Source: a virus
Taxonomy: Duplodnaviria > Heunggongvirae > Uroviricota > Caudoviricetes
Reading direction: 5' to 3' (one strand)
IMG/VR virus record: IMGVR_UViG_2923302340_000002
Location: 1 to 29,281 of that record
Length of the DNA: 29,281 bases
Shown here: piece after piece, positions 8,520-10,982 of the stretch
How positions within the stretch are numbered: position 1 is the stretch's first letter
Layout: every line of letters starts with the position of its first letter
The notes under the pieces: model-generated
Told to the model about the DNA's origin: nothing
The model's database searches: none
The model's input: the letters and a program-made list of their open reading frames with translations, nothing else
Position numbers and translations under genes: made by a program

Positions 8520-8992
8520 ACCTCAATCTCTCTGACCGTTCCGCCCGCTTCTTTAAATTTTGTAATCAGGCTGTCAGCCTTATGCTCGAACTGACCATAA
8601 CCAGCCCCCGGCAGTGAAGCCCAGATATTGCTGCAACGGTCGATTGCCTGACGGATATCACCGCGATCAATCATCGGTAAAGCGCCACGCTCTTTAATCT
8701 GCTGCAATGCCACAGCGTCCTGGCTTTTTGGAGAGAAGTCTTTCAGGCCAAGCTGCTTGCGGTAGGCATCCCACCAACGGGAAAGAAGCTGATAGCGCCC
8801 TGCTGCTGTTGATTTGAGTTTTGGGTTTAGCGTGACAAGTTTGCGAGGGTGATCGGAGTAATCAGTGAATAGCTCTCCGCCAACAATGACGTCATAACCA
8901 TGATTTCTGGTTTTCTGTCGTCCGTTATCAGTTCCCTCTGACCACGCCAGCATATCGAGGAACGCCTTACGTTGATTATTGATTTCCACCAT
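8516..8992 (-). CDS. R: Endolysin R (lytic transglycosylase)
   Basis: 158-aa [54 protein letters not shown], same length and N-terminus as lambda R. Confidence 0.95.
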
Positions 8993-9299
8993 CTTCTACT
9001 CCGGCTTTTTTAGCAGCGAAGCGTTTGATAAGCGAACCAATCGAGTCAGTGCCGATGTAGCCGATGAACACGCTCGTTATATAAGCGAGATTGCTACTTA
9101 GTCCTGCGAAGTCGAGAAGGTCACGAATGAACCAGGCGATAATGGCGCACATCGTTGCGTCGATTACTGTTTTTGTAAACGCACCGCCATTATATCTGCC
9201 GCGAAGGTACGCCATTGCAAACGCAAGGATTGCCCCGATGCCTTGTTCCTTTGCCGCGAGAATGGCGGCTAACAGGTCATGTTTTTCTGGCATCTTCAT
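8976..9299 (-). CDS. S: Holin S (S107 antiholin and S105 holin, dual start MKM)
   Basis: 107-aa [67 protein letters not shown], the lambda S pattern with the dual-start motif. Confidence 0.95.
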
Positions 9300-9420
9300 G
9301 TCTTACCCCCAATAAGGGGATTTGCTCTATTTAATTAGGAATAAGGTCGATTACTGATAGAACAAATCCAGGCTACTGTGTTTAGTAATCAGATTTGTTC
9401 GTGACCGATATGCACGGGCA

Positions 9421-9455
9421 AAACGGCAGGAGGTTGTTAGCGCAGCCTCCTGCCG
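9421..9455 (-). other. Stable hairpin in the late leader about 130 nt upstream of S
   Basis: 10-bp perfect stem CGGCAGGAGG / CCTCCTGCCG around a 12-nt loop, followed on the minus strand by UUUUGCCCG. Confidence 0.4.
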
Positions 9456-9764
9456 CCCGCTTTCACGAAGATCATGTGTAGAAGGCCGCAGCGTAACTAT
9501 CACTGATGAATTCAGGATAGCCAGTGGCTACGGCTCAGTTTGGGTTGTGCTGTTGCTTGGCGGCGATGACGCCTGTACGCATTTGGTGATCCGGTTCTGC
9601 TTCCGGTATTCGCTTAATTCAGCACAACGGAAAGAGCACTGTATGTTGCTGGGCCAGATGTCGGCTGCACAGGGAGTCATTGCCGACCCACGCCCTAAAC
9701 ACATTCGTAAATGCGCTTAGGGTTGTCTCCCCTGGTATCCAGTTATTCCCCGGCTGGGGATACT

Positions 9765-9812
9765 CCGCGCGACGCTAATGCGTTTCGTCCCTCATGGACT
9801 CGTCAGGCGCGC
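9765..9812 (-). ncRNA. Type I hammerhead ribozyme motif in the late-transcript leader
   Basis: Minus-strand RNA GCGCGC-CUGACGA-GUCC-AUGAG-GGAC-GAA-ACGC-AUUA-GCGU-C/GCGCGG. This contains both conserved core blocks (CUGANGA and GAA), helix II (GUCC/GGAC, closed with G10.1-C11.1), helix III (ACGC/GCGU with A15.1-U16.1), a GUC cleavage triplet, and helix I formed by the flanking GCGCG/CGCGC. Confidence 0.6.
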
Positions 9813-10087
9813 AATGCTCTTACCTGTTGTGTGCCCATTATTAATCACACCGGGCCAGTGCGCCGAATTTGTTTACAAGGAGTCGGAAGACCTTGCTGAC
9901 TTACAGGCTATTACGCCGCCATCAGAACAACATCATCGTTTGCATTTATCTTTGTGGTCAGTTTCTAAAAAACCGCAAAGTCGCCAACTCTGACGAAAAC
10001 TATCGTTGTGCTGCCACAACGATAAGAGCACTCGGTGCATTTAAGCCAAGCCCCATAAGGGAGAATGCTCTTACCTGTTACACAGAT

Positions 10088-10146
10088 ATAAAAAATCCCG
10101 AAACCGTTATGCAGGCTCTAACTATTACCTGCGAACTGTTTCGGGA
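10088..10146 (-). terminator. tR' (terminator of the short 6S late leader RNA)
   Basis: Minus-strand hairpin with stem arms AAUCCCGAAAC / GUUUCGGGAUU followed by UUUUUUAUAUCUG, about 194 nt downstream of the predicted pR' start, consistent with the lambda 6S RNA length. Confidence 0.6.
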
Positions 10147-10279
10147 TTGCATTTGCAGACCTCTCAGCCTGCGATGGTTGGAGTTCCAGACGATACGTCG
10201 AAGTGACCAACTAGGCGGAATCGGTAGTAAGCGCCGCCTCTTTTTATCTCACTACCACAACGAGCGAATTACCCCATCG

Positions 10280-10316
10280 CTGGGTCAAATTTACCCAACT
10301 TTATTCAAAAAGTCAA
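10280..10316 (-). promoter_or_regulatory. Late promoter pR' (with overlapping qut region)
   Basis: Minus strand TTGACT, a 17-bp spacer, then TAAATT, located about 45-80 bp downstream of the Q stop. Good match to a sigma-70 promoter. Confidence 0.6.
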
Positions 10317-10358
10317 TATCATGCCGTTAATATGTTGCCATCCGTGGCAATCATGCTG

Positions 10359-10982
10359 CTAACGTGTGACCGCATTCAAGATATTGTCTGCGATTGACTC
10401 TTCCTTGTGGCATTGCACCACCAGAGCGTCATACAGCGGCTTAACAGTGCGTGACCAGGTGGGTTGAGTAAGGTTTGGGATTAGCATCGTTACAGCGCGA
10501 TATGCGGCGCTTGCTGGCATCCTTGAATAGCCGACACCTTTGCATCTTCCGCACTCTTTCTCAACAACTCTCCCCCACTGCTCTGTTTTTGCTATATCAA
10601 CCGCGCGGCCTGTACCGTGGCAATCTCTGCATCTTGCCCCCGGCGTCGCGGCACTACGGCAATAATCCGCATAAGCGAATGTTGCGAGCACTTGCAGTAC
10701 CTTTGCCTTAGTATTTCCTTCAAGCTTTGCCACACCACGGTATTTCCCCGATACCTTGTGTGCAAATTGCATCAGATAGTTGATAGCCTTTTGTTTGTCG
10801 TTCTGGCTGAGTTCATGCTTACCGCAGAATGCAGCCATTCCGAATCCGGCTTGTGATTGCGCCATCCCCATAGCAGCCATCACATCAGTACCGGAAAGAG
10901 AGTCAGAAGCCGTGGCCCGTGGTGAGTCGCTCATCATCGGGCTTTTTGGCGAATGAAATTTAGCTACGCTTTCGAGTCTCAT
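10359..10982 (-). CDS. Q: Late antiterminator Q
   Basis: 207-aa ORF MRLESVAKFHSPKSPMMSDSPRATASDSLSGTDVMAAMGMAQSQAGFGMAAFCGKHELSQNDKQKAINYL, same length and sequence pattern as lambda Q, with a Cys-rich zinc-binding region. Confidence 0.95.
   Translation of the reverse strand: MRLESVAKFHSPKSPMMSDSPRATASDSLSGTDVMAAMGMAQSQAGFGMAAFCGKHELSQNDKQKAINYLMQFAHKVSGKYRGVAKLEGNTKAKVLQVLATFAYADYCRSAATPGARCRDCHGTGRAVDIAKTEQWGRVVEKECGRCKGVGYSRMPASAAYRAVTMLIPNLTQPTWSRTVKPLYDALVVQCHKEESIADNILNAVTR

Follow-up and report, generated by a model that had tools for sequence, protein, structure and literature searches.

Why does the leader between the genes Q and S (holin) of a lambda-like phage measure 1059 bp, versus 676 bp in lambda itself (+383)? 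The question is raised by the Caudoviricetes record IMGVR_UViG_2923302340_000002 of IMG/VR, whose positions 1 to 29,281 form the stretch of DNA analyzed here (the window). The initial annotation of this stretch had stated, correctly, that the lambda region is about 380 bp shorter, and had interpreted the repeats as a duplicated stem-loop, one copy of which acquired a ribozyme insert. We found that the longer leader holds three separate RNA cassettes, which stand head to tail just downstream of the terminator tR'. The repeated 16- to 20-mers of the region make up a single conserved RNA helix, here termed the frame, as its 5' strand (A) and its 3' strand (B). The frame brackets an exchangeable payload, and the 173 nt between the two frames form a third element, X, derived from transfer-messenger RNA (tmRNA). 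Beyond the earlier account are both this third element and the recognition that the repeated module belongs to a widespread RNA family, represented in lambda by the small RNA (sRNA) LPR2. Judging from sequence comparison, we put at about 0.65 the probability of the overall reading, namely that two frames flank the tmRNA-like X in a Q-dependent leader, where the frames would be processed and X would act on tmRNA.

Organization of the late leader

The late genes of the window lie on the minus strand, which is the transcribed (sense) strand, and all coordinates below refer to it unless noted otherwise. Pairwise alignment with lambda revealed two closely similar parts of the Q-S region: positions 10358..10064 correspond to lambda 44510-44805 with 96% identity, and positions 9641..9300 correspond to lambda 44844-45185 with 97% identity. 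Between them, 422 bp (10063..9642) stand where lambda has a 38-bp hairpin loop, so that the region as a whole is not collinear with its lambda counterpart. The 16-mer AATGCTCTTACCTGTT, described in the initial annotation as an exact repeat, is indeed present in the 29-kb window in two exact copies only (9813-9828 and 10064-10079); if as many as three mismatches are tolerated, 0.17 chance matches are expected, and one of 100 shuffled sequences gave two or more. Its inverted partner, CACAACG..AAGAGCACT, is found at 9623-9640 and 10015-10032 in copies that are 89% identical, and the arms are 31 and about 171 nt apart, as had been described. These repeats had been quoted from the plus strand; their positions were right, and the sense strand is the opposite one.

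Frame 1 (10082..10015) starts 5 nt past the T-run of tR'. Its 5' strand A1, UGUAACAGGUAAGAGCAUUC (10063..10082, corresponding to lambda 44787-44806), pairs with the 3' strand B1', GAGUGCUCUUAUCGUUGUG (10015..10033), around the 29-nt payload l1 (10034..10062), and the fold of 10086..10012 closes through this helix with z = -2.8. The outer stem of A1 reads UGUAAC, and that of lambda and of the second copy reads CACAAC; the three transitions turn Watson-Crick pairs with GUUGUG into wobbles, and all six outer pairs are retained. The l1 payload also occurs in many lambdoid prophages and in P1-like plasmids of about 95 kb, where it lies downstream of tRNA-Asn and tRNA-Thr.

Frame 2 (9831..9623) is built from the 5' strand A2, CACAACAGGUAAGAGCAUUG (9812..9831), which shares an identical 16-mer with A1 and likewise corresponds to lambda 44787-44806, and the 3' strand B2, CAGUGCUCUUUCCGUUGUG (9623..9641), which corresponds to lambda 44844-44862 and is 89% identical to B1'. 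The two strands enclose the 170-nt payload Y, a hammerhead followed by a structured RNA of about 125 nt, and the whole of frame 2 folds with z = -4.5. Element X (10004..9832) fills the interval between the two frames. The perfect 10-bp palindrome with a 4-nt spacer at 10001..10024, which had been reported exactly, spans the junction of B1' and X: the initial 10 nt of X, at its 5' end, are complementary to the outer portion of B1', at its 3' end. The palindrome is followed by UUUUCG and was scored as terminator-like by the scan. Its sequence suggests an alternative hairpin, which would compete for bases with both the frame 1 outer stem and the start of the X arm that is antisense to tmRNA (see below).

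The cassettes are preceded by the pR' late promoter (10316..10288), detected in a promoter scan as TTGACT and TAAATT with a 17-nt spacer within the part collinear with lambda 44510-44805, and by tR' (10148..10088), the end of lambda 6S RNA, recognized as an inverted repeat followed by a T-run and by its homology to lambda. The pR' promoter is the origin of the transcript that bears every cassette. All cassettes lie downstream of tR', and thus, from their position and homology, they are transcribed only with Q antitermination. The genes on either side of the leader are Q (10982..10359) and the holin gene S (9299..8976).

The frame helix family and lambda LPR2

The frame helix, of about 18 bp, is divided into an outer stem of 6 bp and an inner stem of 10 bp, between which lie, in this order, a bulged A, two G-C pairs, and a U.U mismatch; both copies in the window match the 6-bp/bulge/10-bp architecture. 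IMG/VR was scanned with CAACAGGTAAGAGCA, and matches having a B partner were accepted as frames. At least 109 modules in IMG/VR loci (designated by L numbers below) were obtained, with more than 50 unrelated payloads of 29-170 nt among the matches listed. A second selection used AACAGG and CCGTTG only, with no pairing demanded. The candidate A/B pairs were bimodally distributed, 58 distinct ones having 9-10 of the 10 inner positions paired, versus a background of 1-6. In these 58 distinct frames 98.4% of the cells are paired, a percentage that is biased upward by the choice of rows for pairing (at least eight of 10 inner pairs); double changes were found at eight of the 18 pairs (47 cells), and neither they nor the bimodality are affected by this selection. 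The covariation was reached by none of 500 shuffles, and controls with slid strands pair at no more than 61%. Divergent frames next to X preserve the helix with wholly different sequences (CCCACCAAUGAGAGCA/UGCUCUCAUUCGUGGG and CCAACUGUAACGACGCU/AGCGUCGUUACAGUUG). Thus the repeats are strands of a conserved covarying helix that is found in more than 100 phage loci, and the pairing maintained through G.U, together with an orientation that always matches adjacent tRNA genes or the late operon, indicates that selection acts on RNA and not on a DNA inverted repeat.

Frames were observed at three kinds of sites: straight after several different lambdoid tR' terminators; abutting tRNA genes, always in the same orientation as those genes; and, in a P1-like plasmid, four in tandem after tRNA-Asn and tRNA-Thr. 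In several payloads a T-arm-like hairpin is stacked on the B strand. In the plasmid in question, pCREC-532_2 (L317:1112-2080), the four frames are unannotated and carry different payloads, one with a T arm and one identical to l1 of the window; one of the frame helices is fully covaried (ACAACGUUGAGAACACUGG/CCAGUGUUCUCAACAUUGUG). About one third of the frames have a conserved tail hairpin, GGUGAAUGCGCAGGCUGAUGCGC, directly 3' of the B strand (e.g., L004:2753-2775 and L317:1349-1375), with an invariant loop AGGCUGA and a covarying stem (GCGCA/UGCGC, GCACA/UGUGC, ACGCA/UGCGU, GCGUA/UACGU). This hairpin is absent from the window, and lambda-type leaders carry CUGAAUUAAGCG at that place. One payload family (L050, L099, L100, and L114) is distinguished by the conserved blocks CCCGCCACA..GCUGAAACCCAAGCGC..GCGCCGAAA..GGGGCGUUGGUNGAAGAUCGG and a large optional insert. 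The payloads of L050 and L100 were considered as twister or hatchet ribozymes on account of their ribozyme-like appearance and had no match to any Rfam family.

Lambda itself has one such module on its sense strand, namely A (CACAACAGGUAAGAGCAUUG), a loop of 37-38 nt, and B (CAGUGCUCUUUCCGUUGUG). The lambda RNA LPR2 was detected as an Hfq-bound band of about 63 nt in the lytic cycle (bioRxiv 10.1101/2024.10.31.621285). The northern probe used for it, P844, is the exact reverse complement of the lambda loop and the start of B, and thus the lambda module is LPR2. The module has 76 nt, and removal of the 6-nt outer stem at each end leaves 64 nt, close to the size of the LPR2 band, which suggests that processing would occur at the discontinuity of the helix. 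The window resembles lambda in having the module just after tR' and in both strands, A and B, which correspond to lambda 44787-44806 and 44844-44862. In contrast, the probed loop (the P844 target) is absent, l1 and Y are unrelated to the 38-nt loop of lambda, and there are two frames, with payloads of 29 and 170 nt, plus X. Lacking the LPR2 loop, the window therefore encodes relatives of LPR2 and not LPR2 itself.

Two known kinds of RNA invite comparison with the frames. RNase III hairpins of phage polycistronic RNAs are known from the R sites of T7, the late and N leaders of lambda, and the species I RNA of T4. Like these, the frame is a helix of about 18-20 bp, irregular and interrupted by an internal loop, located in a long phage transcript beside tRNAs or genes; unlike these, its sequence is nearly invariant over unrelated phage families, and its apical part is a swappable functional RNA. 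The bacterial YrlA (Y RNA-like) RNAs, reportedly described by Chen and co-workers in the journal RNA in 2014, are said to be modular, with a long conserved stem and a variable domain. The frames also combine a conserved long stem with a variable part and have a T-arm-like hairpin in many members; however, they show no match to the Rfam Y_RNA/YrlA families, no rsr or Ro gene is found nearby, and most payloads are not tRNA-like.

Rfam searches of 20 and 13 payload-bearing loci, by gathering score and by E-value, returned only tRNAs and unrelated weak matches; at the cassettes themselves they gave no twister, pistol, hatchet, Y RNA, STnc100, AgvB, or AsxR. An E-value search of the window against Rfam yielded matches to the hammerhead and the tmRNA tag, all below threshold, and no others. 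Among the sRNA families considered for the window, Pas, STnc100, AgvB, and AsxR had no match to its cassettes, and PreS was rejected, as it is located in the early left operon. Away from the frames, the prophage loci that carry them contain a sub-threshold STnc100 match (L012:4822-4941) and an above-threshold isrJ match (L013:1706-1782). A frame family with exchangeable payloads was found in neither Rfam 15 nor the searchable literature.

The hammerhead payload

The first 47 nt of Y (9765..9811) form a type-I hammerhead (Rfam Hammerhead_1). Its core is complete, comprising CUGACGA (9806..9800), GAAA (9786..9783), the A15.1-U16.1 pair, and the GUC triplet (U9772, C9771), and cleavage is predicted between 9771 and 9770. 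The stems (I, CGCGC/GCGCG, open-ended; II, GUCC/GGAC; III, ACGC/GCGU) meet in a three-way junction in the minimum-free-energy fold. The search score of 24.7 bits (E = 0.006 in a 3-kb search) is below the Rfam gathering score of 34, so that the assignment to the family follows from the anatomy and not from the score. We collected 16 copies of the hammerhead payload (13 distinct), each inside a frame; the core is invariant, and variation among the 13 distinct hammerheads is limited to N7 (C, A, or U) and two loops.

The rest of the payload, the structured RNA of about 125 nt (9642..9770), contains several hairpins and has no Rfam family match. The hairpins CCCUAA../..UUAGGG and GUCGGC../..GCCGAC, noted in the initial annotation, are present in the minimum-free-energy fold of 9834..9620. 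An additional pairing between a loop and a single strand, GGGGAG/CUCCCU, is compensated in L161 as GUGGAG/CUCCAU.

Type-I hammerheads with the same stem II, GUCC-N5-GGAC, were also observed in 78 other IMG/VR contigs (L125-L216), mostly a few tens of nucleotides upstream of an ATG; that of L125 lies directly after the 3' end of a tRNA. The hammerhead of the window is like these in its full catalytic core, in the form of stems II and III, and in the open stem I. It differs in being the first part of a payload within a frame helix and not directly upstream of a start codon, in being followed by a 125-nt structured RNA, and in scoring below the gathering threshold.

Element X and its tag frame

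Element X is about 90% identical to unannotated intergenic DNA of unrelated virulent phages. It is present in 758 of 50,697 phage records, unannotated, in at least five families; the carriers include siphoviruses of about 47 kb, Gamaleyavirus, Ackermannviridae, Felixounavirus, and Erwinia phages. In some GenBank records a 'hypothetical protein' is placed over X. In phage C1 and in L025 and L074, X begins a few nucleotides after a good sigma-70-type promoter, flanked by genes that run the other way. Having its own promoter and neighbors on the opposite strand, X is thus an RNA gene in its own right. In the Felixounavirus phage tootiki (L321:610-925) it stands between tRNA genes and a gene for an HNH homing endonuclease. 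In three contigs of about 155-160 kb (L241, reverse strand, approximately 1770-2180, with equivalents in L291 and L250), a series of long-stem modules lies downstream of X, each terminated by a T-arm-like hairpin (GGUUCGAnUCC); the closing stems of these modules covary between phages, and ARAGORN calls no tRNA there. X of these contigs has a 100-nt 5' extension able to pair in cis with the anti-tmRNA arm.

The central part of X contains a start-less reading frame, AUAAAU GCA AAC GAU GAU GUU GUU CUG AUG GCG GCG UAA (9949..9911), in which the resume context AUAAAU (9949..9944) precedes the tag frame GCA..UAA (9943..9911), read as ANDDVVLMAA*. As in the mRNA-like domain of tmRNA, this frame opens with an Ala codon and closes with a degron of the hydrophobic-A-A type and a stop. 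The only Rfam matches were local and sub-threshold and fell on the tmRNA tag region: tmRNA_permuted with 26.3 bits (gathering score 47) and beta_tmRNA with 17.2 bits (84). All 121 copies of X compared have 10 codons and a stop, never with a start codon, and encode 11 peptides of the form AN[DE][DEN]xxL[AMI][AV]A; four more distant phages encode ANDAQFLAVA, ANDNVFLAVA, ANDNEFKVAA, and ANDSEMRVDA. Single-step neighbors differ by 10 synonymous or stop-to-stop changes versus five replacements, all of them conservative, with 25% synonymous expected (p = 7e-4). This pattern indicates that the tag frame of X is under selection at the protein level.

The 3' structured part of X (9833..9925) comprises helix 5 (9925..9896), pseudoknot 2 (PK2, 9895..9863), and a PK3-like pseudoknot (9860..9833). 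The stop codon is located in the loop of helix 5, the stem of which covaries (CUGA/UCAG, CUGG/CCAG, UGAU/AUCA). In PK2, stem 1 was observed in six fully compensated versions and stem 2 in three, and compensatory changes occur in PK3 as well.

X thus shares with tmRNA (SsrA, two-piece forms included) the GCA resume codon, preceded by A/U-rich sequence in which position -5 is U and position -4 is A, the 10-codon tag that begins AN(D/E) and ends in A, the stop codon in helix 5, and the pseudoknots that follow. In contrast to tmRNA, it has no acceptor stem, T arm, or CCA, it bears an arm antisense to the tmRNA of the host, and its tags end in MAA, AVA, or AAA, not LAA. Without the tRNA-like domain, X is not a tmRNA in the defining sense, although it reproduces the mRNA-like half of one. 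The mycobacteriophage DS6A represents the opposite case, a tRNA-like domain without the coding part (PMC4131195).

Complementarity of X to host tmRNA

The 5' arm of X (9966..10004) is the part that is antisense to tmRNA. The reverse complement of 10004..9966 is collinear with nt 67-106 of Escherichia coli K-12 tmRNA, i.e., the 3' strand of pseudoknot 1 (PK1), the linker, the resume codon, and codons 1-6. Three blocks match, UAAAAAGCCGCAA, AGUCGC, and GACGAAAACUA (in X, 10002..9992, 9984..9979, and 9978..9966). The local alignment score of the arm is 36 versus 14.6 +/- 2.2 for shuffled sequences, none of 1000 of which reached it. All variants of X align to the same tmRNA coordinates, including the Felix O1-like one at 72% identity. 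A 28-nt segment of the arm pairs with tmRNA nt 81-110 at -21.4 +/- 2.1 kcal/mol, versus -11.2 +/- 1.9 with the homologous region of the phage itself and -9.8 +/- 2.9 with shuffled targets, and the host tmRNA is the better duplex partner in all 43 arm/tag combinations. Variant arm bases mostly give G.U pairs with tmRNA, e.g., GCGGCU and GUGGCU opposite AGUCGC. Block (i) fits only tmRNAs with PK1 of the Enterobacterales/Vibrio type. It is precisely in the codons covered by the arm that the phage tags depart from the host tag, and the arm is thereby kept from pairing with its own frame. The distance from the paired-arm 3' end to the resume codon is 22 nt in X, versus 23 nt in E. coli tmRNA (nt 67 to 90). 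A genome scan for the E. coli-type tag gave no Erwinia tmRNA among the 120 matches listed, and a scan of viral contigs for the Pseudomonas-type tag gave only whole host ssrA genes or coding sequence, with no X-like arm.

From this complementarity we infer that X pairs with the single-stranded coding region of host tmRNA. More tentatively, and with rather more doubt than confidence, we suggest that X is a half-tmRNA that might reprogram trans-translation in the host, the arm silencing the host tag and the phage tag being appended instead. The arm would invade the coding region and the 3' strand of PK1 (nt 67-106); the hybrid would present the phage resume codon to ribosomes rescued by host Ala-tmRNA and SmpB; and ANDDVVLMAA, ANEEMYLAVA, ANDEQFLAVA, and similar peptides would be appended instead of ANDENYALAA. 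If so, the frame helices may represent a general system by which phages package, process, and swap effector RNAs. Neither X nor any phage RNA aimed at tmRNA was found in Rfam 15 or in the searchable literature, where the tag peptides were searched as well.

Origin of the arrangement

The whole arrangement is present in one of 5426 complete E. coli genomes (EC6622) and in five IMG/VR prophages. The EC6622 prophage (L318) has the same leader and different downstream holin and endolysin genes (rrrD type); thus the leader cassettes and the lysis genes are separate units of the mosaic. The individual parts are more widely distributed: tR'-A-l1-B occurs alone in many lambdoid prophages, tR'-A-Y-B with the hammerhead payload occurs alone in L193 and L208 and also in a T7-like Enterobacter phage, and A1-l1-B1'-X-A occurs with other second payloads, with 100% identity in prophages of enterohemorrhagic E. 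coli (EHEC). Positions 1-251 of the insert, through A2, are 100% identical to EHEC prophages that then carry another payload, and positions 233-422, from A2 on, are 98.4% identical to NMBU-W10C18, which does not have the first part. The two breakpoints overlap exactly in A2, which places the junctions in the shared A strand. These comparisons indicate that the arrangement arose by recombination between phages at shared frame strands, and not by duplication plus insertion.

Alternative explanations

Part of the initial explanation stands, inasmuch as the leader does hold two homologous copies of one stem-loop module, with A strands identical over 16-20 nt and B strands 89% identical, one of the copies does bear a hammerhead insert, and there is just one copy in lambda. 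That the lambda stem-loop underwent local tandem duplication and then gained a ribozyme insert is nevertheless very unlikely, since the payloads l1 and Y have no similarity, l1, X, and Y can each be found by themselves, with 90-100% identity, in other phages, some leaders contain A-Y-B only (L193, L208) or A-l1-B only, and the breakpoints of homology to EHEC prophages and NMBU-W10C18 coincide within the A strand, as expected of cassette exchange by recombination. The pieces have close relatives of their own in other combinations, and the comparisons already indicate that A-l1-B, X, and A-Y-B are independent older lineages. The same breakpoints mean that the strands do serve as recombination joints, and could be held to favor a mobile DNA element in which A and B are terminal inverted repeats or attC-like sites and the RNA is irrelevant; such an element would explain inverted repeats around variable cargo in many genomic contexts, and we take the ends CACAAC..GTTGTG to be loosely like integron core sites. 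We find this hard to credit, because the helix is held by G.U pairs (U.G in 41 of 58 frames at one pair, and C-to-U and A-to-G wobble variants in the outer stem) that would be mismatches on the other DNA strand, the orientation always tracks the surrounding tRNA genes or late operon, and the lambda copy yields a discrete RNA. Moreover, at the loci inspected we saw no target-site duplication and no neighboring transposase, integrase, or recombinase.

A more serious contender concerns X alone, which could do no more than inhibit or sponge host tmRNA as an antisense RNA, or be an inert fragment captured from ssrA, its tag never being translated. No tRNA-like domain is found in cis, and to block trans-translation the antisense arm would suffice by itself. 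We consider this unlikely though by no means negligible, and it is disfavored by the coding-type pattern: the 10 codons and stop of all 121 copies and of the four more distant ones, the 15 peptide versions that all fit AN[DE]x..(A/V/D)A, the excess of synonymous single steps and the conservative nature of the others, and the stop codon that stays in the helix 5 loop while the helix covaries. Furthermore, an inert remnant would not have been retained across 758 phage genomes from at least five families. Small proteins encoded on the plus strand (open reading frames 9778-9993 and 9711-9899), the repeats being incidental, deserve next to no weight. Such frames exist mechanically, and GenBank records occasionally place a protein over X, but they have no Pfam or PHROG match, 1-nt indels among the X variants would shift them, and the pattern of substitutions is that of the RNA helices and of the tag frame on the minus strand.

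Several observations weigh against the preferred reading of processed frames and an X that acts on tmRNA. The tRNA-like domain (acceptor stem with G3.U70, T arm, and CCA) was not found by ARAGORN in the window and 36 X-bearing loci, and no T arm or CCA precedes the terminator that closes the complete C1 unit; inspection of L025 and L074 likewise gave no tRNA-like domain. The match between arm and tmRNA consists of blocks of just 6-13 nt, and the arm of the Ackermannviridae version may also pair in cis with an upstream segment. The minimum free energy of X is no better than that of shuffles (z = -0.3), a value that is uninformative for a pseudoknotted, trans-acting RNA. Stem I of the hammerhead is without covariation, its sequence being the same in every copy, and this adds to the score below the gathering threshold and to the selection of frame rows for pairing mentioned above. 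Finally, the presence of RNase III sites in lambda late RNA is taken from the title of a 1988 paper by Daniels et al.

Proposed mechanism and implications

The mechanism that we propose takes as given the anatomy of the leader, the homology to LPR2, the covariation of the frames, helix 5, and PK2, the conservation of the tag, the complementarity of the arm, and the modular distribution. Q lets RNA polymerase pass tR', and only then is every cassette transcribed. A nuclease specific for double strands, most likely RNase III, may cut the frame helices and leave the payloads as stable hairpin RNAs; the role of RNase III is suggested by how long the helix is, by the LPR2 band size, and by the title of the paper by Daniels et al. 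The hammerhead, which its intact core suggests is active, would cut after C9771, giving the 125-nt RNA a 5'-OH and severing the late transcript between X and gene S. Complementarity and coding-type conservation suggest that the arm of X would then block the tag frame of the host tmRNA and might substitute the phage frame for it.

The orphan lambda sRNA LPR2 thereby gains a family, and length differences among lambdoid late leaders are explained by exchangeable RNA cassettes at one fixed site, the same at which other phages carry tRNAs. The frame helix is a searchable signature of dozens of unannotated structured RNAs, which spans lambdoid, P1-like, T7-like, Felix O1-like, Ackermannviridae, Schitoviridae, and siphovirus genomes. 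The abundant phage RNA X, which has never been annotated, joins an anti-tmRNA arm to a translated-looking tag frame. Existing phages and EHEC prophages allow its action to be tested directly in E. coli, and, if X does act on trans-translation, it would represent a previously unknown viral takeover of ribosome rescue and protein-quality control.

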